From the IMG/VR virus record IMGVR_UViG_2645727669_000007: DNA of 21,267 nucleotides; one strand, written 5' to 3'. Source of the DNA: a virus. Its lineage: Duplodnaviria > Heunggongvirae > Uroviricota > Caudoviricetes. The position numbers were made by a program, and so were the translations under genes. The notes below the pieces were generated by a model that was not told the origin of the DNA, did no database searches, and saw nothing but the letters and a program-made list of their open reading frames with translations. How positions within the stretch are numbered: the first letter of the stretch is position 1; each line of letters begins with the position of its first letter. Positions 1,317-16,985 of the stretch are shown piece by piece.

Positions 1317-2432
1317 ATGTCTGTTAATGATGCCAAAAAACTTGCGGATAAACTTTTCCCAATATTTGATGATGATGATATTTCTATCGTTGATATTCCC
1401 CCTGAGCAGCGTCGATTGCATACCGAGACTTACGATTTTTCAATATCAACACTCGTCGACTATTTGAAAAATGGTACTGTGTTTATTCCTGATTTTCAAA
1501 GGAAATATGTTTGGAGTAGAGGGCAGGCATCAAGATTAATTGAGTCTTTAATAATCCAGTGTCCTATCCCTGTTATTTATTTAAACCAAGAGAAAGATGA
1601 GAGTTTATCTGTTATTGATGGTAATCAACGGTTGACTTCAATTAAACTATTTATTGAGGATGGTTTTGAATTACAGGGATTGACAGCATATCCAGAATTG
1701 GAGGGGAATTCGTTTTCATCACTGGACGCGAGATTCCGTAGGCATATTTTAAATCGCACATTGAGATGCATAACCATATTAAAAGAAACTCACCCTCAAA
1801 TTAAAATTGATGTTTTTGAAAGAATAAATACAGGTGCAGTACAATTAAATCCTCAGGAGGTACGTCATGGAGTTTATCATGGTCCATTATTTACTATGAT
1901 TGACGAAATAAGTGAGGAGAAAGTATGGAGAGACTTAACAGGAATTAAAAATGACACACGAATGAAGAATAATGAACTCATATTGAGAGCATTCGCACTT
2001 TCATATTCTGTGACACCATATAAAAAACCATTAAAGAAATTCCTTAATGATTTTAGTTCTGAAAAACAAAATATTGAACCTGATGTTGCCTTGGAGTGGC
2101 GTAGTAGATTTCTTGGTGCATTAAACTGTATTAATAAATTGTTTGGTAAAAAAGCATTTAGAATTCTAAATGAAAACTTAGAGCCTCAAGTAAGAAATTT
2201 CAATTCTGCTTTATTTGATGCTCTAATTGTCGGGTTTATGGTATCAAAATTTAATCAGGATATGATAAACGAACTTGATGCAACAAAACTTAAGGATTTC
2301 TTAATAGAGTTTCAAAGAATAACATCAGAGGAGCGTTTTAATGAGTCGATTACTTCTGGCACTTCGGCGACGCAATCGGTTCATTATCGTATTAGCACAA
2401 TGAAAAATTTCATTGAACGGTATTTCAACTGA
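1317..2432 (+). CDS. DUF262 (ParB/Srx-like, GmrSD N-terminal-type) domain protein with no fused DUF1524/HNH nuclease
   Basis: 371-aa ORF. GAGG sits 8 nt upstream of the ATG. N-terminal motifs DFQRKYVWS and IDGNQRLTS (DGQQR-like) are characteristic of DUF262. The C-terminal half looks helical with no His-Me finger visible by eye. The region is AT-rich relative to flanking DNA. Confidence 0.75.
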   Translation: MSVNDAKKLADKLFPIFDDDDISIVDIPPEQRRLHTETYDFSISTLVDYLKNGTVFIPDFQRKYVWSRGQASRLIESLIIQCPIPVIYLNQEKDESLSVIDGNQRLTSIKLFIEDGFELQGLTAYPELEGNSFSSLDARFRRHILNRTLRCITILKETHPQIKIDVFERINTGAVQLNPQEVRHGVYHGPLFTMIDEISEEKVWRDLTGIKNDTRMKNNELILRAFALSYSVTPYKKPLKKFLNDFSSEKQNIEPDVALEWRSRFLGALNCINKLFGKKAFRILNENLEPQVRNFNSALFDALIVGFMVSKFNQDMINELDATKLKDFLIEFQRITSEERFNESITSGTSATQSVHYRISTMKNFIERYFN

Positions 2433-3148
2433 TGGCATATATTAAAAGCGCATCTAGAAAACAATTCGAGCAGATTCATTCCAATTTGCTTGAACAGGTT
2501 CGTTATGTTTCAAAAATAAAAGAATTAAGAACAGATATTATACATAGTGTTTATAATAACGCGATATTTCGAGTTTCTGCTGCATTCGAAGATTATATTA
2601 AAGATGTTTTGGAAGATTGGATTGACATGCTGAACCAAAATAACGGATGCCTTTCGCATCTACCTGATGAAATTATCTTGTTTTCTTTATTCAAAAACCA
2701 AGAGAAAAATTTTATAAATTACGTTTCTCATGGTTCTGAGTCAATAATGATGAGTGACTTAAATAAGTGTAAGGATAAACTTCAGGCGTTATCGTCACCT
2801 AATTCTCCTGTAAAGCCTGTTATTGTCCCAAAACAGCTGATAATGGATAAAAAATATCCTTCCAAAAAAAATATCAAACTTCTTTTTAATAGATTTGGTA
2901 TCAAAGATATATTAAAAGCAATGACTGCGAAAGGTAAAAAAGATTATGAGTTCATGCTCCAGTCTTTCTCTGATAGCCGCACGGAGTTAGCCCATTCATA
3001 TTCTTCAATTAATCTTTCAAAAGATACTGTTATTGATAAGCTAAATAATGTTAAAGAAATTGTTAGGATTATGGATAGGATATTATATTCACATGTCTGT
3101 GATAAAAGTGGTAGTGAATACTGGAAAACAGAACTGTTAGCGATTTAG
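2432..3148 (+). CDS. Partner protein of the DUF262 gene; candidate HEPN-like effector (Rx4HxY motif)
   Basis: 238-aa ORF whose ATG overlaps the upstream stop (TGATG), indicating translational coupling. Contains SRTELAHSY (R-x4-H followed by Y) in the C-terminal third. No other family recognised by eye. Confidence 0.55.
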   Translation: MAYIKSASRKQFEQIHSNLLEQVRYVSKIKELRTDIIHSVYNNAIFRVSAAFEDYIKDVLEDWIDMLNQNNGCLSHLPDEIILFSLFKNQEKNFINYVSHGSESIMMSDLNKCKDKLQALSSPNSPVKPVIVPKQLIMDKKYPSKKNIKLLFNRFGIKDILKAMTAKGKKDYEFMLQSFSDSRTELAHSYSSINLSKDTVIDKLNNVKEIVRIMDRILYSHVCDKSGSEYWKTELLAI

Positions 3149-3155
3149 TATTAAT

Positions 3156-3176
3156 GCGGCTAATATCTTTAGCCGC
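3156..3176. terminator. Hairpin between convergent genes (possible bidirectional terminator)
   Basis: GCGGCTA / TAGCCGC 7-bp stem with a 7-nt loop, lying between the stop of 2432..3148 (+) and the stop of the integrase (-). No strong T-run follows. Confidence 0.3.
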
Positions 3177-3214
3177 ATTGAAGTTGAAGCAACCTTTGAC
3201 CACCATGTTTACTT

Positions 3215-4483
3215 TTATTGAGCAAACTCAAACGGCCTGACCATCCCATCCCGATTTGCATCAAGATAATCTGCCCACCACTGTAACATCAATCTTCTCT
3301 GTTCAAGATGTTTGGCCTTATGGGTATAGGCAGCACGCACACTGTTGCTTTCCTTGTGGCTCATCTGAAGTTCTACCGCATCTTTAGACCATAGCCCTGA
3401 TTCAATCAGAGCACTACATGCCAGTGTTCGGAAACCATGACCGCAGATGTCCTGCGTGGTGTCATAGCCCATCTTACGCAGCGCCTTGTTGATGGTGTTT
3501 TCACTCATGGGTTTGAATGAGTCATAACATCCAGTAAAAATTAATCCGGCGTCATTACCTTCTTCATAGGTAAGCTGACGGATCTCTTTCAGTATCTTAA
3601 GAGCCTGCCTGCAAAGGGGAACAAAGTGCTGGCGTTTCATTTTTGCGCCACGCGTGGAATATTTGACGCGCTCAATCACTTCACGCTTTTCTGGTATCAC
3701 CCATAACTTACTGTTGAAGTCGATTTCTGACCATCGTGCATAGCGGAGTTCACTGGAACGAATGAAAATCAACAGATTGAGTTTAATCGCCAGTGTGGTA
3801 AGTCCACGGCCTTTGTAGGCATCAATACGTTCAAGTAGCAGGGGGATCTCTTCCAGCTCCAGTGCGGGACGGTGCTCAGTCTCTGGTTTCTGCACAGCAC
3901 CTTCCATATCGTAAGCAGGATTATGGCGCATAAGTTTTTGCTGGACGGCGTGACGCAGGATGGCAGTGATGTATTGCTTGATCCGCATGGCAATTTCAAG
4001 ATAGCCAAGCGTTTCTGCTTTTTTTACCGGAACAAGCAGATCACCCGTATCCAGATCTGAAACGTTGCTGTCACCAATATCCGGGAATACATAGGTCTCA
4101 AGGCGCTTCCATACCGTATCGGCGTAATCTTCAGACCATTTTGTTTTGGTGGCAAACCAGCTTCTGGCGACGACACGGAACGAACGGGTTTTATCCCGCT
4201 TTTCCTGCAGAGTTTTTTCATCAGCCTGTTTTTTAGCGTTAGGATCGATTCCCTGAGCAAGCAGCTTTTTTGCTTCATCACGTCGTTGTCTGGCATCAGC
4301 AAGAGAAACCGCAGGGTAAACACCAATGGAAAACACTTTCTGTTTACCATCGAAGCGATAGCCTAACTGCCAGTATTTTGAACCATTGGGATGCAAAAGA
4401 AGGTAGAGACCAAATCCATCAGTGAGCTTGACGGCTTTTTCCGCTGGTCTGGCATTTTTTACTTTAGTATCAGTAAGTGACAT
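3215..4483 (-). CDS. P4-like tyrosine integrase (intact), tRNA-Asn associated
   Basis: Start MSLTDTKVKNARP is preceded by GGAGGG. Motifs GFGLYLLLHPNGSKYW, YPAVSLADARQRRDEAKK, HGFRTLACSALIESG and RAAYTHKAKHLEQRRLMLQWWADYLD are present. The ORF-track start at 4549 adds an unlikely 22-aa extension. The gene lies immediately downstream of the tRNA-Asn 3' end. Confidence 0.85.
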   Translation of the reverse strand: MSLTDTKVKNARPAEKAVKLTDGFGLYLLLHPNGSKYWQLGYRFDGKQKVFSIGVYPAVSLADARQRRDEAKKLLAQGIDPNAKKQADEKTLQEKRDKTRSFRVVARSWFATKTKWSEDYADTVWKRLETYVFPDIGDSNVSDLDTGDLLVPVKKAETLGYLEIAMRIKQYITAILRHAVQQKLMRHNPAYDMEGAVQKPETEHRPALELEEIPLLLERIDAYKGRGLTTLAIKLNLLIFIRSSELRYARWSEIDFNSKLWVIPEKREVIERVKYSTRGAKMKRQHFVPLCRQALKILKEIRQLTYEEGNDAGLIFTGCYDSFKPMSENTINKALRKMGYDTTQDICGHGFRTLACSALIESGLWSKDAVELQMSHKESNSVRAAYTHKAKHLEQRRLMLQWWADYLDANRDGMVRPFEFAQ

Positions 4484-4623
4484 GACGGTTCCCTCCGCGT
4501 GCTGGTAAAACGCAAATCGAACCAGCTTTACCAGCATTTTTACCAGCAAAGTAGTGTGGATTCGAGCGGTTTTTAACGAACGAGGGTGAACCTGAAGAAG
4601 GGGATAACCAGTTGATATAAATG

Positions 4624-5871: not shown

Positions 5872-6897
5872 TTACTTGGAATATTTTCTTGGAATATTTT
5901 CAGGTAACGGGACATCAAGTGTTGGTGAAACTTTAACCTTCCTGTCATAGATTAGCACTTGCCCTTCGGTTTTGTGACCAGAGAAAAGTTGCTTATCCCG
6001 GCTGCTTCCTTCATAGTCTGAAATTCCTTTCGCCTTCAGATCATGAAAGGTGAAGTCGGTTAAAATACCTGAAATTTTTCCAGCACGATTTCTTGCTTCT
6101 ACCCACATTTCGTTAAAGCCTTTGTACATATATCGGTTGCCGTATTGATTGCTGATCACATAGGCAGATTTTGGTAACTGTTTTGCTTTTTCGATCGCTG
6201 CCTGTAATCGTGGACTCCATGCTTTTATCTGTTTTTTTCCGGTTTTCCCTTGCTGGATGAATATCCCGTCGTTTCCAATCTGTTCCCATTTCAGCGATAA
6301 CACATCGGAAACCCTCGCTGCACACAGATAGGCAATTTCCATTGCGATAAAAACAGGAAGAGGTGCAACGCTTAATACTGCCTGGTATTCTTTGTCGGTT
6401 ACATATCGTTCGCGGTTTTTGGCCTTGAATTTACTTACACCTGCACATGGGTTAGCCTTGACGTACCCTCGCTCATACCCCCAACTGTAAACACGGGACA
6501 TACTGCTTTTTTCATGGTTGGCTTGCGTTTTACTCTGCTCCCCTCTTTTGTCCATGTATCGACGGATGTGTTCTGGTTTTATGGAATCCGCTGGTACCTT
6601 ACCGAATACGGCAAGCAACTTTTTTTGATGTTGCAGATAATCTTTTTGTGTTCTTGGACTAAGGTCACTGTAATAGGCGCTGGCGAGGAATTTTTCCCAC
6701 AAGCGACCGAATGTCATTGCACGATCGCGATTATTTACAGTTTCCTCATACTTTTTCCATAAAGCAGCTAAACCATCCTTGATGGCGGTTAGTGTGACAG
6801 ATTCTCTGGATGTTGGTTTCCATACATAACTATATTTATTTGGGTATACATTTGGAGGTAATTTTTCGTGTTCAGGATTTTTCCTTCGTCTTCCCAT
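5872..6897 (-). CDS. int: Prophage tyrosine integrase (lambdoid), tRNA-Ser site
   Basis: 341-aa ORF directly downstream of the serU 3' end. Overlaps an excisionase-like ORF by 1 nt. A catalytic-domain-like region (AYLCAARVSDVLSLKWEQI ... HDLKAKG) is present. Confidence 0.8.
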   Translation of the reverse strand: MGRRRKNPEHEKLPPNVYPNKYSYVWKPTSRESVTLTAIKDGLAALWKKYEETVNNRDRAMTFGRLWEKFLASAYYSDLSPRTQKDYLQHQKKLLAVFGKVPADSIKPEHIRRYMDKRGEQSKTQANHEKSSMSRVYSWGYERGYVKANPCAGVSKFKAKNRERYVTDKEYQAVLSVAPLPVFIAMEIAYLCAARVSDVLSLKWEQIGNDGIFIQQGKTGKKQIKAWSPRLQAAIEKAKQLPKSAYVISNQYGNRYMYKGFNEMWVEARNRAGKISGILTDFTFHDLKAKGISDYEGSSRDKQLFSGHKTEGQVLIYDRKVKVSPTLDVPLPENIPRKYSK

Positions 6898-7158: not shown

Positions 7159-9600
7159 TTAAAAATCAGCCTGACTCGGGATCAGTTTTTGCCAGATAGC
7201 TGAAACGTATTTTGCCTGGTAACGAGCGTCATCAAGTGCATTATGGCGCTCACCTTCGAATGGGATAGCAGTTCTGGCATCGAAGTCTATGGCTTTCCCC
7301 AGCTCAACGATTGTGCGTACATCGCGATCGTTGCAGTAGCGCCATGGGCAGGGGATACCCTGTCGTTCGTATGAACGGCGTAAAATCACGTTGTCGAAGT
7401 TGGCCCCATTACCCCAGACCTGAACAAAAAATTCACCGGAGTTTTCGTCGATAAATTCCCGCAATTGCAGTAGTGCATCATCTAACGGGATTTCATCGGT
7501 CATAATGGCAGACTGCGCTTCACGTGATTGCTTCAGCCACCATTTAATGACGTCACGATCAATGACTCCGCCAGCAGTATCCAGATCGATGGTCTTGCTA
7601 AATTCCGGTCCCATATCTCCGGTTTGTGGATCGAAAAATATTGCGCCTATTGAGATAATCGGGGCATCGGGATTTTTTCCCATGGTTTCAAGGTCGATCA
7701 TCAGATGAATCCCCGCTCTGCTGGTGGATGTGAGCTTATGATGACCATTCACCTTAATTAAGGGATCTGTCGCCTCGCCAGTTTTATTATCGCTGGCGTG
7801 ATGCTGATTGCCGCCAGGGTTCTCCTTGTGTGGATGTTCAGCGCCTTCCATTTCCTCCGGATCATTTTCCTGAACTTCAACCTGATTCTCTTCATCGAAT
7901 GTTTCCTGGTATGTTGCGTCGCCCATCACCGCGCCACAATCAGGGCAGTTGCCGCCACCGCTCTGACCGCAGGCGGTGCAGACTTTTTCCGGTTCCTGTT
8001 GCGCTACTGGTTCGGATTGTTTCGTTTCTGGCTCGTTTTGTAACGCATTTGGGCTGTTTTGTTCCGCTTTTTGGTCGTTCCGTTCCGATTCATGCTGGTT
8101 CTGGTTCACAGAATCGCGAGTCTGGATCCCCTTGACCCATTTCGGATCATTAGGGTCGCTAATCCCCTCAACAAATTCACCACGCGATACAGCAAGTAAC
8201 TTATCGGCGTCAGGCTGGCTGATATTGGCTGCCTGCATAATTTTGTTTACTTCGTCAGCGGTGACTTTTACTTGGTTAGCGGAACTCACCTGCGACTGAG
8301 CATCCAGCGACTGCGCGTTCTGGCCATGTTCAGTTGTATCCGGTTCCATTGTTTCAGTTGTTGCCTGTTCACCTGCCATTGCGTCAGATGGTTGTGGTTT
8401 TTCTTCTTCTGTTTCACGCTCAGTAACCACCTCGCGGTTAATTTTTTCCAGGATATCTTTTTCCGGCGTATGCCGGGCAGCTGTGAGAGTTTCCTTGCTG
8501 GGGTTCTCGTGATCAGTTTCCGTCAAATAGGCGTTGATATACCCCTGAAGGCGTCCCGGGTAGTGATAAAATTCAGGGTGTGCGCTTCGGATAAGTGCAA
8601 AAATAGCGGCGCGGGAATAGTCCAGAATACCCGGGGTTGCACGAAGTGCTGCGGACCATTCTTTGAACGGACTTTCTTTGTTCAGGACTACTTCTTTTGC
8701 GCGACGATAAACGCTGCCCGGAATTTCATAAATATTAAAATCCATCGGAAGTGTGGCTGCTGCAATCTCCACATCCAGTGTGTCGAGGGTGTGTACTAAA
8801 TTCGGATTGCGATCGGTTTTGTTCCCACCGCCAGCATTAGCACCGGAAGCCGTGCGGGTGATGCGTGAAACACGATTTCCTTTCATCCACTCTTTTGTCA
8901 GCAGACCCCGATCAGTGTAGTCAGCGTCCAGGTATGCTTCGAAAAAAGCAGTTATTAGTCCCAGGTCTGAATTACCAGGATTAGGGAAAACTTTGTCAGT
9001 GTCACGAACCAGTTTGTGGAGGTCGCGAATCTCCAGCGAGTCGAGCAGACTGGTTTTATGCGAAATAGCCAGGGCAGTAACAGCCGGTAGTTCTTCAGCC
9101 CGTGCAATGTGTAATGCCTGGAGTTCGTCGCGTGAAACGTGCGTTACTGGTTTTTCGCTGCCGTGTTGAGCAAGCCAACGAATGGGCAGTTCCTGACCGG
9201 AGACAGGCAGAAGCATGCTCTCCTCAATCTCAGTCATGTCTTCGCCGTTGATGTTGGTATTGTCAGTGCTGGCTGGTTTGTCCTGAACAGAGGGGGAAGG
9301 GCCGATAAATGTCATTGTGATGCCATCTTTCCCGCCTTTTTCATAGCGGTTGCAGAATTCAGTATCAAACACGCCTTCTGGCGGAAGGTCGTCAACAACG
9401 GGCAAATTGACGCGGACGGGTTTTTTAAAGTCGTCTTCATCATAATCGTTGTCATCCATTGCGGTAATGCAGCGGGAGATTGCAACAGATAATTTTTTTG
9501 CTGTAGTCCAGTAAAAACCACCTTTAATTCCTAGGCGTTTTCTTACTTTGTCATTTTTTGCTTCGCAATATAGTGCAAATTCTTCTTTATCAGTGCTCAT
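7159..9600 (-). CDS. RecE-family (exodeoxyribonuclease VIII-like) prophage protein with C-terminal DEDDh 3'-5' exonuclease domain
   Basis: 813-aa ORF. The C-terminus has DEDDh motifs: LMIDLETMG (exo I), WGNGANFDNVIL (exo II), HNALDDARY (exo III). The central region is acidic and low-complexity with a CTACGQSGGGNCPDCG zinc-ribbon-like motif. The N-terminal region resembles RecE from memory. Confidence 0.65.
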   Translation of the reverse strand: MSTDKEEFALYCEAKNDKVRKRLGIKGGFYWTTAKKLSVAISRCITAMDDNDYDEDDFKKPVRVNLPVVDDLPPEGVFDTEFCNRYEKGGKDGITMTFIGPSPSVQDKPASTDNTNINGEDMTEIEESMLLPVSGQELPIRWLAQHGSEKPVTHVSRDELQALHIARAEELPAVTALAISHKTSLLDSLEIRDLHKLVRDTDKVFPNPGNSDLGLITAFFEAYLDADYTDRGLLTKEWMKGNRVSRITRTASGANAGGGNKTDRNPNLVHTLDTLDVEIAAATLPMDFNIYEIPGSVYRRAKEVVLNKESPFKEWSAALRATPGILDYSRAAIFALIRSAHPEFYHYPGRLQGYINAYLTETDHENPSKETLTAARHTPEKDILEKINREVVTERETEEEKPQPSDAMAGEQATTETMEPDTTEHGQNAQSLDAQSQVSSANQVKVTADEVNKIMQAANISQPDADKLLAVSRGEFVEGISDPNDPKWVKGIQTRDSVNQNQHESERNDQKAEQNSPNALQNEPETKQSEPVAQQEPEKVCTACGQSGGGNCPDCGAVMGDATYQETFDEENQVEVQENDPEEMEGAEHPHKENPGGNQHHASDNKTGEATDPLIKVNGHHKLTSTSRAGIHLMIDLETMGKNPDAPIISIGAIFFDPQTGDMGPEFSKTIDLDTAGGVIDRDVIKWWLKQSREAQSAIMTDEIPLDDALLQLREFIDENSGEFFVQVWGNGANFDNVILRRSYERQGIPCPWRYCNDRDVRTIVELGKAIDFDARTAIPFEGERHNALDDARYQAKYVSAIWQKLIPSQADF

Positions 9601-11474: not shown

Positions 11475-12113
11475 TTAAATATCTTGTTGAATTTTAAAGC
11501 ATACGCCCAATATGCAAGATAGATCATCCAGCATAATTGAAGGGTAGCGAGGATTCGTGGGGACTAAAAGAATATCCGGCCCTTCTATCTCCAGTTTACG
11601 AATGACAGGTGTTGTGGTCCCTTTGGGTAAGGCAAGGACAATATTTCCTGGTTGTACGGTTCGATCGGGATCAACAAAAACTGTTGAACCATTTGGGATG
11701 GAAACTCCCCCACCAGATGTTGACATACTGTCACTCTCTAGAACAACTGCAAAGGTATTGGCCGGGATTTCTCCGACAAGCTGCACACAAGAGGTTATTG
11801 AGGAATTTTTCATATAATCACTCCAGCTTGCTGCCTGCTGAAGTGATAGTAGCGGAACCGTTTTTATCGGCGGTAAAGATAGATCAAGCGAATCACCTGT
11901 ATTTAACTCTCCTCCATTAAGAAGCCAATTTTCGTTTACTTTCAATATCTTTGCCAGTGAACTTATGTAACGCGAGGACGGCGCTCCTCCACCGTTCATC
12001 CATTGACTTACGGAGCCTTTTGATGCGCCAGTGGCATTGACAAGGTCTTTGCCTTTCAGGTTTAGCGCATGCATACGTTGGGTTATGCGTTCAGATATTG
12101 TTTGCTTGCTCAT
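11475..12113 (-). CDS. CI-like prophage repressor (N-terminal HTH, C-terminal S24/LexA-like peptidase domain)
   Basis: 212-aa ORF. HTH region is LKGKDLVNATGASKGSVSQWMNG. The S24 region has a Ser motif (LESDSMS) and Lys motif (PVIRKLEIEG). It is transcribed divergently from a cro-like gene. Confidence 0.85.
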   Translation of the reverse strand: MSKQTISERITQRMHALNLKGKDLVNATGASKGSVSQWMNGGGAPSSRYISSLAKILKVNENWLLNGGELNTGDSLDLSLPPIKTVPLLSLQQAASWSDYMKNSSITSCVQLVGEIPANTFAVVLESDSMSTSGGGVSIPNGSTVFVDPDRTVQPGNIVLALPKGTTTPVIRKLEIEGPDILLVPTNPRYPSIMLDDLSCILGVCFKIQQDI

Positions 12114-12204
12114 GTTTTGATTTTAAAACACAGATGGTTTTGTTTCTTGACTTTCTTTGGTTTTGATTATTAAACTTTTGGCGTTCAGTTTTATGGAGCG
12201 ACTC
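12114..12204. promoter_or_regulatory. Divergent cI/cro promoter-operator region with three repeated GTTTTG(A/T)TT motifs
   Basis: 91-bp gap containing ATGTTTTGATTTT, TGGTTTTGTTTC and TGGTTTTGATTA, spaced roughly 21 to 24 bp apart, plus a TTGACT hexamer. Confidence 0.4.
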
Positions 12205-12435
12205 ATGAAAAAATCAGAAGTATTAGGCTATTTTGGCGGAGTTGTTAAAACAGCCGCAGCTCTAGGAACGTCAAAAACCACAGTCAGCATGTGGGGGGAA
12301 GAGGTTCCGTGGAAATGGGCGTTGCTAATTCAGGCAGTCACTGCCGGGGCGCTCAAATATGAGTTACACATACCGACGGTTGTCATTCCCGGTTCTGATC
12401 ATAATCCGCCTTCTAACCAAGGGGAGGATTCATGA
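12205..12435 (+). CDS. Cro-like (DicC/YdaS-family) small DNA-binding regulator
   Basis: 76-aa product MKKSEVLGYFGGVVKTAAALGTSKTTVSMWGEEVP... with GGAG upstream, divergent from the repressor. The ORF-track start at 12157 is an extension. Confidence 0.6.
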   Translation: MKKSEVLGYFGGVVKTAAALGTSKTTVSMWGEEVPWKWALLIQAVTAGALKYELHIPTVVIPGSDHNPPSNQGEDS

Positions 12436-12857
12436 AAATCAAGCATGAACACATCCGCATGGCGATGAATGCCTGGGCGCGTCCTGATGGCGAAAAAGTT
12501 CCAGCAGCTGGAATAACCCAGGCTTATTTTGAGTTGGGTATGACGTTTCCTGAACTGTATGACGACAGCCATCCGGAAGCCTTGGCTCGCAATACCCAGA
12601 AAATTTTCCGCTGGGTAGAGAAAGACACCCCTGATGCAGTTGAAAAAATTCAGGCGTTGTTACCAGCGATCGAAAAGGCAATGCCACCTTTGCTGGTGGC
12701 CAGAATGCGCAGCCACAGTTCAGCTTATTTTCGGGAGCTGGTGGAGACGCGGGAGCGATTGGTGAGAGACGCTGATGATTTTGTCGCAGTGGCAATCGCC
12801 GGTTTCAATCAGATGAACCGTGGTGGCCCGGCAGGAAATGCTGTGGCAGTACATTGA
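12432..12857 (+). CDS. YdaT-like prophage protein (CII position)
   Basis: 141-aa ORF whose ATG overlaps the cro stop (ATGA) and is preceded by GGAGGA. Family assignment is by position and from memory of YdaT only. Confidence 0.4.
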   Translation: MKIKHEHIRMAMNAWARPDGEKVPAAGITQAYFELGMTFPELYDDSHPEALARNTQKIFRWVEKDTPDAVEKIQALLPAIEKAMPPLLVARMRSHSSAYFRELVETRERLVRDADDFVAVAIAGFNQMNRGGPAGNAVAVH

Positions 12858-12928: not shown

Positions 12929-13999
12929 ATGGCTAACGCCTGGCTCAGATTATGGCATGACATGCCAAATGACCCTAAGTGGCGAACAATTGCCAGGGTG
13001 TCAGGGCAGCCAATTGCAACAGTGATGGCAGTGTATATCCACCTCCTGGTGAGCGCGTCACGAAATGTCACGCGAGGTCACATTGATGTCACGACAGAAG
13101 ATTTGGCAAGTGCGCTCGACGTAACAGAAGAGGTAATTGATTCAATTTTGCAGACGATGCAGGGGCGGGTACTTGATGGTGATTTAATCACTGGATGGGA
13201 AAAACGCCAAGTGCTTAAAGAGGACAACGGCAATATATCGCAAACCGCAAAATCTCCTGCAGAGCGCAAGAGGGCGCAGCGAGAGAGGGAAAGAAAGCGG
13301 GAACAAAATGGCGATTGTCACGGCGCGTCACGAAATGTCACGCACATGTCACGACGAGTCACGACAGATAAAGATACAGATAAAGATACAGATCAAGAAG
13401 ATCAAAATACTATGGTCCATGGCGTAAAAAACGCCACGAACCAGGCAGGGGATGTTCAGGCCGTCAATCCTGGTCAGCCAGCAGGCACGACACCGGAAGC
13501 CGATTCAGCGTATGCGCTGAAAGCCGATTCGGGCGCTGTGCAGCAGGTGATGACCGCAAGGCCGGAGCAATCACACCAACTGCAGCAGCCTGAAGCCGAT
13601 TCCGCCATTCAGCGGGAAGCCGATCGGGTAGTTCCGGAAAACACCGGGCAGTCTGTGGGACGAGTGGATTATCCGGATGTGTTCGAACAGGTCTGGCGGG
13701 AGTACCCGTTGCGTGCTGGGGCAAACCCGAAGAAATCCGCTTTCAGTGCCTGGAAGGCCAGATTACGCGAGGGGGTGCCACCAGAGGCCATGCTGGATGG
13801 CGTGAGGCGTTACGCAAGATATCTGGCGGCTACCGGGAAAGCGGGAACGGAATTTGTTCAGCGAGCGACGACGTTTTTTGGACCGGACCGGAATTTTGAA
13901 AACCCCTGGTTGCTCCCGGTAAGCGGTACGAATAACCAGCGTTGCGTGAATCACATTTCTGAACCAGATACCGAAATTCCACCGGGCTTCAGGGGGTAA
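12929..13999 (+). CDS. Phage replication initiation / replisome-organizer-like protein containing the origin iterons
   Basis: ATG at 12929 with GAGGTGA upstream (the ORF track starts at a GTG at 12923). N-terminus is WLRLWHDMPNDPKWRTIARV. There is an acidic KDTDKDTDQEDQ linker. Two iteron arrays lie inside the coding sequence. Confidence 0.55.
   Translation: MANAWLRLWHDMPNDPKWRTIARVSGQPIATVMAVYIHLLVSASRNVTRGHIDVTTEDLASALDVTEEVIDSILQTMQGRVLDGDLITGWEKRQVLKEDNGNISQTAKSPAERKRAQRERERKREQNGDCHGASRNVTHMSRRVTTDKDTDKDTDQEDQNTMVHGVKNATNQAGDVQAVNPGQPAGTTPEADSAYALKADSGAVQQVMTARPEQSHQLQQPEADSAIQREADRVVPENTGQSVGRVDYPDVFEQVWREYPLRAGANPKKSAFSAWKARLREGVPPEAMLDGVRRYARYLAATGKAGTEFVQRATTFFGPDRNFENPWLLPVSGTNNQRCVNHISEPDTEIPPGFRG
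13057..13093. repeat. Iteron array 1: four GTCAC(G/A) repeats at 10-11 bp spacing
   Basis: GTCACG at 13057, 13067 and 13088, with GTCACA at 13077, read directly from the sequence. Confidence 0.7.
13317..13363. repeat. Iteron array 2: five GTCACG repeats at 10-11 bp spacing, followed by an A-rich GATAAAGATACAGATAAAGATACAGATCAAGAAGATCAAAAT tract
   Basis: GTCACG at 13317, 13327, 13337, 13348 and 13358. The first 21 bp (GCGCGTCACGAAATGTCACGC) are identical to array 1. Confidence 0.7.
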
Positions 14000-14039: not shown

Positions 14040-14462
14040 GTGGCAAAAGTTTTTACACAAGAAGAGCGAGAAAAAATTAAAGGGCAGGTTGTTGAACTCG
14101 TACGCCAGAGTGGGCGTGAGACGTTACGGCAACTGGAAGTCAAGACAGGTGCGACAAGATATCTGATGAGCGTTCTCGCAAGAGAGCTGGTTGCCAGCGG
14201 CGATGTATACAACTCTGGTTACGGGTTATTCCCGTCTGAACAGGCGCGTAAGGACTGGCAAAATGCCCGTAAAAAGCTCTCAAGGGCAAAGCTGAAGAAA
14301 CCATCTGCGGTTGATCCGGACCTTATCTGGTCATTACCTGATGGAGAAATACGTCGTTACGACAGGCGTCATAATATAATTTGTACTGAGTGTCGTAAAA
14401 GCGAAGTTATGCAGCGGATATTGTCGTTTTATCAGGGGGATGTTCGGTATTTTTTGAAGTGA
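14040..14462 (+). CDS. Hypothetical prophage protein
   Basis: 140-aa ORF with a GTG start 4 nt after AGGAGG. Basic residues and a CTECRK motif. No family recognised. Confidence 0.4.
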   Translation: MAKVFTQEEREKIKGQVVELVRQSGRETLRQLEVKTGATRYLMSVLARELVASGDVYNSGYGLFPSEQARKDWQNARKKLSRAKLKKPSAVDPDLIWSLPDGEIRRYDRRHNIICTECRKSEVMQRILSFYQGDVRYFLK

Positions 14463-14700: not shown

Positions 14701-16035
14701 TTATGATACCGATAAAAACTTTTTTTTAATTTCTGCTGCCGTTTTCTCCATGCTGGGATATACAGTGCTTTCGGATATATTAAGCTGCGCCAGCTCTTCC
14801 AGAATTTTATTTTTGTTCGCTATCTCCACTCTGTTAAGAGGAAACTCAGCATCTGTTTCCGGTAAAATGGGATCAAGTCCGAACAGAAGAAAAGCTCCTG
14901 CCTGAGATTGTATGCGTTCATTATTTATTTTAGCCTTAAGGAAAACAACTTTCCTTAAGTCATCAGGAATTATTCTGTTTCTAAAATATGATTTTTCATT
15001 CTGTATAAGGTCTGCAAGTTTATCAGTGAGTTCAGATAACTCCATATTACCTTTTCTGGAATCAGAGGAGGACAATTTTTCCAACTCTTCGTAAGATAAA
15101 AGTGATAAGTTTGCTATACAGCTCACTGTATCTGAGTCGAAATATTTAATTTTCTTTCTATTTGTTGAAAACGAAATCACCTGTCCGTTTTCATTGGGGT
15201 TCGAACAGCAAGCAAAATATAATGCTATCAGTGGGTTAGATGTAATGTCTAAGAGTCTTGTAGGCAAGCCATAATGCTGCATGCGGACAAGTTTATCAAT
15301 CGTAAATTTATCCTCCTTAAATTCATTTGGTCTTGCGCTGAGTATTTCACGTACTAAATCAGATTCTGAAGCAAGATGCCTGTACGTCCCGTTTTGATTT
15401 TTTCTGTAAAGAGAGGGGACAAGCTCATATGAGCTTTTAGAGTGTCCACGATAAAAGGTAATGAGACCATCACGAAAGTTTTTCTTTATGAAATTAAGAT
15501 AATCTATAATATTCTCGACTACTGGGTATGTTTGTTTTTTTAATTTGATTGTACCTTTGGGGTGACTATTTTGTTTGTTTAAACCAAGTGATTCCAGAAC
15601 AATATTTAAATCCTTATTTTTTACTGCCCAATGTGTACGGCTTAACCCGAAAGATCCTAGCCCTAGGGTTTCTTTATATAATGTCGTTTGGGGATTCGTT
15701 ATTTCTCCAAAATTATGATTAATCTTGAAAGAAAATAAAATATCGCCACCATCTTTACGTAAATTTCTTATTTCCCCAAGTCTGATCCTGATGTACTTGT
15801 TTGTATCATATTCATCATCTTTTGTATAAGTTTCGGTCATGAACAATACTGGTAGCTTGGCGAGTTCTCTTAAGGTATCGGGTCTTATTGGTGTTAATTT
15901 ACTGTAAATATCGCTTGGGGTGCCTTCCAGCATGCGGGACATCGAGAATCTTTCCTCGCCTTCTGTAAGCCCTGGGTCCATACACGGCCAGCGGTCAAAA
16001 ACGTCCGGTTCTCCGGCCATGATTAAGCTAAACAT
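14701..16035 (-). CDS. FRG-domain protein (defense-associated moron)
   Basis: 444-aa ORF with AGGAG 6 nt upstream of the ATG. FRG-domain signature: ITFYRGHSKSSYELVPSLYR and MQHYGLPTRLLDITSNPLIALYFA. Markedly AT-rich and in opposite orientation to the flanking prophage genes. Confidence 0.65.
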   Translation of the reverse strand: MFSLIMAGEPDVFDRWPCMDPGLTEGEERFSMSRMLEGTPSDIYSKLTPIRPDTLRELAKLPVLFMTETYTKDDEYDTNKYIRIRLGEIRNLRKDGGDILFSFKINHNFGEITNPQTTLYKETLGLGSFGLSRTHWAVKNKDLNIVLESLGLNKQNSHPKGTIKLKKQTYPVVENIIDYLNFIKKNFRDGLITFYRGHSKSSYELVPSLYRKNQNGTYRHLASESDLVREILSARPNEFKEDKFTIDKLVRMQHYGLPTRLLDITSNPLIALYFACCSNPNENGQVISFSTNRKKIKYFDSDTVSCIANLSLLSYEELEKLSSSDSRKGNMELSELTDKLADLIQNEKSYFRNRIIPDDLRKVVFLKAKINNERIQSQAGAFLLFGLDPILPETDAEFPLNRVEIANKNKILEELAQLNISESTVYPSMEKTAAEIKKKFLSVS

Positions 16036-16618: not shown

Positions 16619-16829
16619 TTTCATATTGGCGAGGTAACGGGAGTTAAGTAGAATGGCTGCGGGTGCTTGAGGCTATCTGTCTCAGGCATGAACACCAAAG
16701 GCAGATAGAGAAAAGCCCCAGTTAACATTACGCGTCCTGCAAGACGCTTAACATTAATCTGAGGCTCAATCTATGAACGGCAAATCTAGGTTAGCCTCTT
16801 ACGTGCCGAAAGGCAAGGAGAAGCAGGCT

Positions 16830-16985
16830 ATGAAGCAGCAAAAGGCGATGTTAATCGCCCTGATCGTCATCTGTTTAACCGTCATAGTGACGGCACTGGT
16901 AACGAGGAAAGACCTCTGCGAGGTACGAATCCGAACCGGCCAGACGGAGGTCGCTGTCTTCACAGCTTACGAACCTGAGGAGTAA
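16830..16985 (+). CDS. hok: Hok/Gef-family type I toxin (HokD/RelF-like)
   Basis: 51-aa product MKQQKAMLIALIVICLTVIVTALVTRKDLCEVRIRTGQTEVAVFTAYEPEE with AAGGAG upstream. The ORF-track entry at 16773 is an in-frame upstream extension. Confidence 0.8.
   Translation: MKQQKAMLIALIVICLTVIVTALVTRKDLCEVRIRTGQTEVAVFTAYEPEE

Follow-up and report, generated by a model that had tools for sequence, protein, structure and literature searches.

Whether a phage replication initiator gene contains the origin on which its own product acts is the question raised by two arrays of a short direct repeat in a 21,267-nucleotide stretch of DNA from a tailed virus (Caudoviricetes; IMG/VR record IMGVR_UViG_2645727669_000007). 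This stretch, hereafter the window, carries a lambdoid prophage of the Escherichia coli type according to its gene content. An original prediction, made from the letters of the window, placed a probable prophage origin of replication within the replication gene, and the conservation of the layout, the constraint at the DNA level and the co-variation of the repeat hexamer support that reading. The two arrays and the A-rich tract next to the second array very likely form an initiator-bound replication origin inside the initiator gene, and the adjacent palindrome at 13413-13443 probably belongs to this origin. The features concerned are listed below with their window positions.

12929-13999, + strand: replication initiator gene, 356 amino acids (aa), holding both arrays
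13057-13093, + strand: array 1, with GTCACG at 13057, 13067 and 13088 and GTCACA at 13078; spacing 10/11/10 bp
13120-13126, - strand: degenerate inverted copy TGTTACG, a one-mismatch hit at codons D64-V65-T66
13317-13363, + strand: array 2, with GTCACG at 13317, 13327, 13337, 13348 and 13358; spacing 10/10/11/10 bp
13364-13411, + strand: A/purine-rich tract, two copies of ACAGATAAAGAT and then ACAGATCAAGAAGATCAAAATACT, with two GATC sites
13413-13443: imperfect palindrome TGGTCCATGGCGT-AAAAA-ACGCCACGAACCA, directly after the A-rich tract
13937-13996, + strand: coding sequence of the C-terminal tail (RCVNHISEPDTEIPPGFRG), which resembles the C-terminal end of host DnaT

The arrays, the A-rich tract and the palindrome

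The initiator gene has the coordinates and strand first noted for it. Four and five copies of GTCACG had been claimed for the two arrays; array 2 contains five exact copies, but array 1 consists of three exact copies and one GTCACA. All copies lie on the + strand at the expected spacing of 10-11 bp, and the first copy of array 2 lies 260 bp after that of array 1, in agreement with the original estimate. The 21-bp stretch reported to be identical in both arrays, GCGCGTCACGAAATGTCACGC, is exact at 13053-13073 and 13323-13343; it occurs exactly twice in the window, where none is expected by chance. GTCACG is found 17 times in the window, compared with 6.85 ± 2.75 times in shuffled sequences (0 of 100 shuffles reach 17), and eight of the 17 copies fall inside 307 bp on a single strand. 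When hexamers phased at 9-12 bp are sought without a preset motif, array 2 is the top result in the window, and the window contains no GTCAC clusters besides the two arrays. The evidence for the degenerate inverted copy at 13120-13126 is weak. At the same codons, most relatives that carry GTCACG repeats have GAC GTG ACA, which corresponds to TGTCAC on the - strand, and the V65 codon is GTG in 94% of the relatives that retain the valine.

The A-rich tract that had been described after array 2 begins directly 3' of the array and extends from 13364 to 13411. It has a GC fraction of 0.36-0.38 and an AT skew of up to +0.61 and is a candidate DNA-unwinding element. Its two GATC (Dam) sites are located at 13390-13405, and GATC sites are also observed inside the tract in enterobacterial and Aeromonas versions of the module (L089, L096, L105, L127 and L149). 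Their presence hints at effects of methylation or SeqA on the putative unwinding element.

The palindrome after the tract folds as DNA with an energy of -8.7 kcal/mol (z = -3.15; 0 of 200 shuffles are equally stable) and is also picked up on the - strand by a terminator scan. Shigella phage 75/02 Stx carries this palindrome too, altered by a single double change that is compensatory (GCGT..ACGC to GCGA..TCGC). Of 54 relatives, 27 have a perfect hairpin (>=6 bp) in the 120 nt that follow the tract, GC-rich and different in sequence from one relative to another; about a quarter of other 120-nt segments hold such a hairpin, a background that is a rough reading rather than a computed value. This enrichment is suggestive but not universal. 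Because post-tract palindromes are frequent, not universal and variable in sequence, the element is retained as a probable rather than a defining part of the origin.

The equivalent linker of phage 75/02 Stx (L003, 2460-2500) belongs to a protein that has the same C-terminal domain as the window's initiator but a DUF1376-type N-terminal domain. The DNA that codes for this linker contains a (GAACAG)n repeat that precedes the palindrome seen in the window, and this repeat may be the own origin element of that module.

Conservation across relatives and selection on the DNA

A scan of one genome per species retrieved 59 loci from Gamma-, Beta- and Alphaproteobacteria, Acidobacteria and other groups. 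Phased hexamer arrays are positioned at aa ~43-55 and ~115-150 in nearly all 59 loci and in several isolated phages. Conservation of the repeat in homologous prophages had been set in advance as a test of the original prediction, and the two-array layout is kept in nearly all of the ~60 loci, down to 38% protein identity. Pseudomonas phage phita81A contains 4 + 4 copies of GTCACG at both equivalent places, followed by AGATAAAGATACAGAAGAAG; Aeromonas phage pAEv1818 has GTCACG in 4 + 3 copies, Ralstonia phage Firinga (38% identity) has GCAACG in 5 + 4 copies, and a spring-water virus has CGAACGC in 3 + 5 copies. The complete genomes of phages Evi, pAEv1818 and Firinga contain no phased hexamer clusters other than these arrays. 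In phage 75/02 Stx, with its other N-terminal domain, no GTCACG arrays are present at the equivalent places.

Array 2 occupies the same place in the relatives and comprises three to seven copies with the family consensus nGTCACG(C/A) and a 10-bp spacing in 60 of 69 intervals. It is followed in almost every relative by a (GATAAA/GATACA)n tract, including relatives from hosts with 65% GC. The family defined by the N-terminal domain (N-domain) contains 1990 clusters at 50% identity with E <= 1e-3, of which 911 have E <= 1e-10. Among 136 full-length representatives, 84 have the VTRG(H) loop, the peptide specified by GTCACG, and 94 have a D[KT]D[KT]-type stretch, the peptide specified by the tract. 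The locus in the window combines at least three direct repeats in the same orientation within the initiator reading frame, an adjoining AT-rich tract, and conservation that operates at the DNA level and is linked to the N-domain, which are the features by which an iteron origin is recognized.

Successive copies, 10-11 bp apart, are out of step with the codon triplets, so that all three reading frames occur over the cores (V-T, x-H-x and S-R). In array 2, the encoded peptide changes among relatives (VT, CH and SR frames) while the DNA cores persist. Codon use under array 1 was analysed in 22 non-redundant GTCACG-class genes. The core codons are nearly invariant, with GTC for V47 in 22/22, ACG for T48 in 22/22, GGT for G50 in 22/22, CAC for H51 in 21/21, GTC for V54 in 22/22 and TCA for S44 in 21/22 genes. 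The spacer codon R49 is free, and conserved residues elsewhere in the protein use many codons. Codons under the array 1 cores have an average entropy of 0.31 bits, and those elsewhere 1.50 bits (Mann-Whitney p = 8e-6). This pattern shows that selection acts at the arrays on the DNA itself and not on the peptide.

The hexamers fall into the classes GTCACG, GTAACG, GAACGC/AACGC, GCAACG and GTGACG, and both arrays of a gene belong to the same class. When the top phased 5-mer is found independently in each region, the two regions agree in 44 of 56 loci, compared with 17.2 ± 3.1 (maximum 29) in 2000 permutations, and several of the disagreements are identical iterons in a shifted register. Relatedness among the loci inflates this agreement count; nonetheless, at least four or five separate class switches are observed. 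Two iterons correspond to 21 bp, that is, to seven codons and two helical turns, and relatives with a longer loop (L085, L110 and L127) have gained iterons in 21-bp in-frame steps.

The N-domain is the sole tested protein part that is consistently co-inherited with the arrays. Most loci with GTCACG arrays lack homologues of the CII/YdaT-like protein, Cro, DUF977 and the C-terminal domain (C-domain). The iteron class also varies inside host groups, with GTCACG and GAACGC both found in Pseudomonas and GTCACG and GTAACG both found in Enterobacterales, which argues against a host factor as the binder. Given its exclusive co-inheritance, the N-domain is the best candidate for binding the arrays.

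The edges of the tblastn matches delimit the inherited unit. Pseudomonas phages share aa 1-138 with the window's initiator at 69.5% identity and have another C-domain, whereas phage 75/02 Stx shares aa 158-356 and has the DUF1376-type N-domain. Both arrays and the tract remain with the N-domain between these two breakpoints, and the match edges coincide with the edges of the cassette. By these comparisons, the N-domain, both arrays and the tract are one inherited specificity cassette, whereas C-domains and downstream helicase or loader genes are freely exchanged among relatives. The genes downstream of the initiator in the relatives range from none to DnaC-like or DnaB-like genes.

In several relatives, the N-domain with an intact GTCACG array 1 is fused to an HNH endonuclease (L150, 4001-4546; L151, 2100-2660; L152, 536-1096; proteins P0042, P0060, P0061, P0073, P0097, P0098 and P0105). 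Just after the basic helix, the HNH domain substitutes for array 2, the tract and the C-domain. The fusion genes of L151 and L152 are located directly upstream of a complete DUF1376-type initiator gene. The Odn nuclease of phage ICP1 is a chimera whose DNA-binding domain derives from a replication initiator and which cuts the cognate iteron origin (PMC8263062). By analogy, the N-domain::HNH fusions may be origin-directed nucleases, or they may be scars of replication-module replacement. The nuclease and initiator families differ between Odn and the fusions, and the fusions described here are known from sequence.

Two loci from Serratia (L128) and Pantoea (L139) encode longer proteins of 396 and 434 aa and carry partly palindromic CTACG repeats (CTACGTAG) at aa ~110-125. 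They may represent a different origin design on the same N-domain scaffold.

The initiator protein, a proposed mechanism and its rivals

An AlphaFold2 model of initiator aa 1-164, calculated from an alignment of 25 relatives, has a predicted local distance difference test (pLDDT) score of 85-97 over aa 11-90. The model contains α-helices at aa 4-11, 16-25, 29-45, 56-63 and 67-77, a β-hairpin at aa 78-87 and a basic helix at aa 110-126, and it becomes disordered from aa 128 (linker ~128-200). The N-terminal domain (aa 1 to ~100) is accordingly predicted to adopt a winged helix-turn-helix fold. With helices and disorder placed in this way by the model, array 1, which codes for aa 43-55 (ASRNVTRGHIDVT), corresponds to the end of the helix at aa 29-45 and the loop before the helix at aa 56-63. 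Array 2 codes for aa 130-145 and, together with the A-rich tract and the palindrome, corresponds to the predicted disordered interdomain linker.

No Pfam family matches the whole initiator at E <= 0.01. The lambda O family (Phage_rep_O) gives no match, and with the threshold relaxed to E <= 1, PF09681, HTH_Crp_2 and DUF7547 are the only matches of the N-terminal part. The PF09681 (Phage_rep_org_N) match spans nearly the full profile (aa 5-123 against profile positions 1-119 of 121) with 15.6 bits, below the cut-off of 23.3, and E = 0.017, and PF09681 is matched at E <= 1 by four of the 25 relatives (best E = 3.3e-4). The N-domain is probably a remote member of this family of N-terminal phage replisome organiser domains. 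In the PHROG collection, the whole length of the initiator matches family 3729 (E = 7.8e-257), annotated as a replication initiation protein, and weaker matches are given by two families of replisome organizer, 4880 (E = 5.7e-6) and 5968 (E = 2.3e-4). The C-terminal domain is of the DnaD-like helicase loader or primosomal protein type according to the PHROG profiles, with phrog_1701 (DnaD-like helicase loader) matching aa 122-356.

The last residues of the initiator resemble a host protein. In a phmmer search, the tail matches the DnaT chains 6aep, 2ru8 and 9zbt of the Protein Data Bank (PDB) with E values of 0.002-0.006, and the alignment reaches the last residue of the initiator with about 15 of 21 positions identical. 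The initiator was also considered as a DnaT orthologue. The NCBIfam DnaT model (NF002770) covers only aa 333-356 with 18.2 bits against a cut-off of 201, which identifies the initiator as a protein with a DnaT-mimicking tail rather than as an orthologue. In recent structures, the C-terminal domain of DnaT touches PriA/PriB and makes filaments on single-stranded DNA (PMC13377028). This analogy suggests that the tail of the phage initiator may plug into the host restart primosome or bind the melted tract. No phage helicase or loader gene is found between the initiator gene and Q in the window, and none is annotated in phage Evi (L153), a complete 40-kb genome deposit that is near-identical and carries the same module.

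A mechanism can be proposed from these features. The gene order places the initiator gene on the cro side, and the gene would be transcribed from the early promoter there. The predicted winged helix would bind the 6-7 bp cores, nGTCACG(C/A), as suggested by the exclusive co-inheritance and co-variation. The bound initiators would align on one face of the helix in a short filament-like array, because the cores recur every 10-11 bp. The complex on array 2 would then destabilise the adjoining purine-rich (GATAAA)n tract, and it might bridge to array 1 ~230 bp upstream, with the DNA between looped or wrapped as in the lambda O-some. The C-terminal domain, with its DnaT-like last 21 residues, would engage the melted DNA, host primosome proteins or both, and host DnaB-DnaC would be brought in at this step. 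In this arrangement, array 2 and the tract would be the origin core, and array 1 would be an auxiliary, dual-coding site within the DNA-binding domain that may bind the initiator while it encodes a permissive loop under dual constraint. Array 1 is most likely an auxiliary or control site and could either wrap the origin or act in control.

A further role of array 1 is conceivable, although we consider it improbable. The loop that array 1 encodes (aa 45-55, variable, read in three overlapping frames) may itself read the iteron core, in which case the binding site and its reader would be the same DNA. The loop is SRNVTRGH in the GTCACG class and KNETRGN or SNATERGRTQ in other classes. If the loop reads the core, the mutational steps that turn GTCACG into another class (GTAACG, GAACGC or GCAACG) would at the same time alter the loop. 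New origin specificities and new groups of replicon incompatibility could then arise by a route built into the gene, and the initiator-domain::HNH fusions could attack rival origins of the same class. Recognition-helix residues that track the iteron class are not obvious outside the array 1 loop and the region after aa 95, and phylogeny confounds this comparison.

The arrays could bind the initiator and nevertheless serve, in array 1 or in both, mainly for negative control through titration, handcuffing or a roadblock to transcription of the gene itself. We regard this as possible but unlikely. It is compatible with array 2 and the tract as the origin core and resembles the control iterons of P1 (incA) and F (incC), iteron plasmids in which an origin array and a control array flank the rep gene. 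The presence of two separate arrays with an AT-rich tract beside just one of them favours it, as does the in-frame variation of array 1 in 21-bp insertions, which is the behaviour of a tunable control element. However, array 1 is conserved as strongly as array 2, and a temperate phage in its lytic phase has little obvious need to limit its copy number; the sequence data do not separate activation from repression.

The remaining alternatives deny the arrays a role in initiation. It is very unlikely that they are sites of another regulator (the CII/YdaT-like protein, Cro/CI, DUF977 or a host protein) at a promoter, for example an antisense promoter within the gene like lambda paQ/pI, where the direct repeats are 10 bp apart. 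Lambda CII does recognise direct repeats with a 10-bp spacing in coding regions, the reverse complement GTGACA resembles a -35 hexamer, and one promoter-like site lies over array 2 on the - strand (13341..13314, 9/12 matches). Promoter-like sites are nevertheless not enriched (4 found, 3.5 expected), and the classes GAACGC, GTAACG and GCAACG have no resemblance to a -35 hexamer. The four to five copies in each of two arrays differ from the single pair of such a site, homologues of CII/YdaT, Cro and DUF977 do not follow the arrays across loci, and iteron types differ inside host groups, as described above. Least probable is that the repeats have no function as DNA and simply reflect a repeated peptide or a recent duplication within the gene. 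The shared 21-bp stretch is indeed read in the same frame in both arrays and encodes ASRNVT each time. Against this, the cores as a whole occupy all three frames at a period that is not a multiple of three, the array 2 peptide differs among relatives that retain the cores, synonymous codon choice is frozen precisely where the cores lie, and the hexamer type co-varies between the arrays across deep divergence. Protein identities of 38-75% among the loci exclude recent horizontal copies of one sequence.

Other observations weigh against the arrays and tract as an origin or lend that reading no help. That the initiator binds the cores, that the tract melts and that the DNA replicates autonomously are steps that we infer from sequence. 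Foldseek matches of the N-domain model in the PDB are winged helix-turn-helix proteins (CAP, DasR, MepR and ArsR), but none is significant (all E >= 0.24). For array 1, which is itself part of the N-domain coding sequence, joint inheritance with the N-domain is trivial. Mostly 227-229 bp, or ~21.7 helical turns, separate the last repeat of array 1 from the first repeat of array 2; this number is not integral and gives no positive support for face-to-face bridging of the arrays. Three low-GC loci (L111, L113 and L134) have the tract with weak or almost no iterons, the two enterobacterial loci L128 and L139 with CTACGTAG-type repeats are without array 1, and one beta-proteobacterial metagenome-assembled genome has neither arrays nor tract, so that typical arrays are not strictly required by every family member. 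Matches to the DnaA box TTATNCACA with at most one mismatch number 21 in the window against 20.9 expected, and those listed all lie outside 12929-13999, a result that is neutral for the origin. No small natural mini-replicon was found in PLSDB, where the matches are confined to prophage inserts in large plasmids, chromosomes under a wrong label and two phage-like circles of 50 kb from Pseudomonas; this outcome supports neither direction. A full-text search of incomplete coverage found no literature on this initiator family or its iterons. The term iterons in a Pf-5 paper concerns a plasmid-like island rather than this family.

Known origins and the prophage setting

An iteron origin inside its initiator gene is of a well-known kind, with examples in lambda, P22 and phage L. 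The lambda ori is a mid-gene set of direct repeats in the initiator gene with an AT-rich tract after it, and in Stx-phage variants with six iterons the extra iterons lengthen O by 13 aa (PMC7466680). The family described here is similar in that its extra iterons add residues, in 7-aa steps as compared with the 13 aa of the Stx phages, and in that its putative origin likewise falls between the domain for origin binding (N-terminal) and the domain for recruitment (C-terminal), with cro and cII preceding the gene in the early right operon. The lambda ori also has a palindrome beyond its AT-rich region. The two systems differ in their repeats, which are 6-7 bp cores every 10-11 bp here and units of ~19 bp in lambda. 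The second array within the code for the DNA-binding domain has no lambda counterpart, and a DnaT-like tail is found here, with no P-type loader gene after the initiator gene. The lambda-type layout of the original prediction stands for the location of the putative origin, within the initiator gene at the interdomain linker, whereas homology to lambda O is without support. Its statement that the motif differs from lambda iterons agrees with the core length and the 10-bp spacing, and the initiator has no Phage_rep_O match. Judged by sequence, the resemblance to lambda would be functional rather than homologous, because the initiator families are not detectably related.

Phage L and P22 are other lambdoid phages whose initiator gene, gene 18, holds its own distinct iterons. 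Six imprecise 11-bp repeats (TGTCCAACGGA) in the middle of gene 18 are followed by an AT-rich stretch and form a putative ori (PMC8022706). The array of phage L is likewise short and helically phased. Phage L differs in having one mid-gene repeat region and no N-domain array, in the phage DnaB-like helicase gene that follows the initiator gene, and in an origin that is itself only predicted. Homology between the window's initiator and phage L gp18 was rejected (best BLASTP E = 1.0).

The replisome organiser G38P of phage SPP1 has a modular N-terminal origin-binding domain and binds repeats in its own gene. The likeness to SPP1 consists of the sub-threshold, full-length PF09681 match of the window's initiator and the name of its relatives, 'phage replisome organizer'. 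SPP1 infects Firmicutes whereas the hosts here are Proteobacteria, and the sequence and organisation of the repeats differ. In SPP1 a second origin, oriR, lies far from the first; the genomes scanned here have no further cluster. In iteron plasmids (P1, F, RK2 and pPS10), a winged-helix initiator binds direct repeats beside an AT-rich unwinding element, but the plasmid iterons are 17-22 bp long and lie outside the rep coding sequence. Staphylococcal pathogenicity island (SaPI) origins contain short hexamer or octamer repeats; they differ in that the AT-rich region lies between two repeat sets and the SaPI initiator is itself a helicase. The distinctive properties of the present family are the short cores recurring once per helical turn, the dual-coding second array, the conserved (GATAAA)n tract, the co-varying specificities and the one-gene module with a DnaT-like tail.

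The initiator gene occupies the position of lambda O in the early right operon, after the cI/cro/cII-like genes. Close relatives of its product are labelled 'phage replisome organizer' by NCBI, and the labels in E. coli genomes and phages include 'phage replisome organizer', 'DNA replication protein O' and 'primosomal protein I'. A 2.4-kb query around the gene is found at 98% identity in many complete E. coli genomes; it has a partial match in 4192 of 5426 such genomes and a match over >=80% of the query in 1567. The analysis thus provides a concrete candidate origin for a very common E. coli prophage replication module, and the assignment extends to a large initiator family whose members are mostly labelled 'hypothetical' or 'replisome organizer' in databases. 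The hexamer classes, at least five in number, constitute a natural series of co-varying initiator-iteron specificities. Such a series would be useful for learning how a winged-helix initiator reads a 6-bp core, for the incompatibility of co-resident prophages and for orthogonal phage-derived replicons. The locus is also a clean example of one DNA stretch under protein-coding and protein-binding constraint at once, and its single-gene module with a DnaT-copying tail suggests hijacking of the host restart primosome instead of the use of a phage-encoded helicase loader.

The other genes that define the prophage setting are as follows.

5872-6897, - strand: integrase
7159-9600, - strand: ExoVIII-like nuclease
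11475-12113, - strand: CI-like repressor
12157-12435, + strand: Cro
12432-12857, + strand: CII/YdaT-like gene
14040-14462, + strand: DUF977/Ren-like gene, followed in order by hok, DUF968, RusA and antiterminator Q

The nuclease gene, at the position of the recombination genes, encodes an 813-aa protein that combines an N-terminal Exonuclease VIII region with a C-terminal Rv2179c-like 3'-5' exoribonuclease domain. A moron-like gene for a 444-aa FRG-domain protein (14701-16035, - strand) lies in opposite orientation between the replication region and the nin-like region, and a Hok/Gef family toxin gene (16773-16985) lies slightly downstream of it. At the other side of the window, a GmrSD_N-domain gene (1317-2432) and a RiboL-PSP HEPN gene (2432-3148) adjoin a second, P4-type integrase (3215-4549, - strand), and this stretch (1317-4549) looks like a small defence island beside the prophage.

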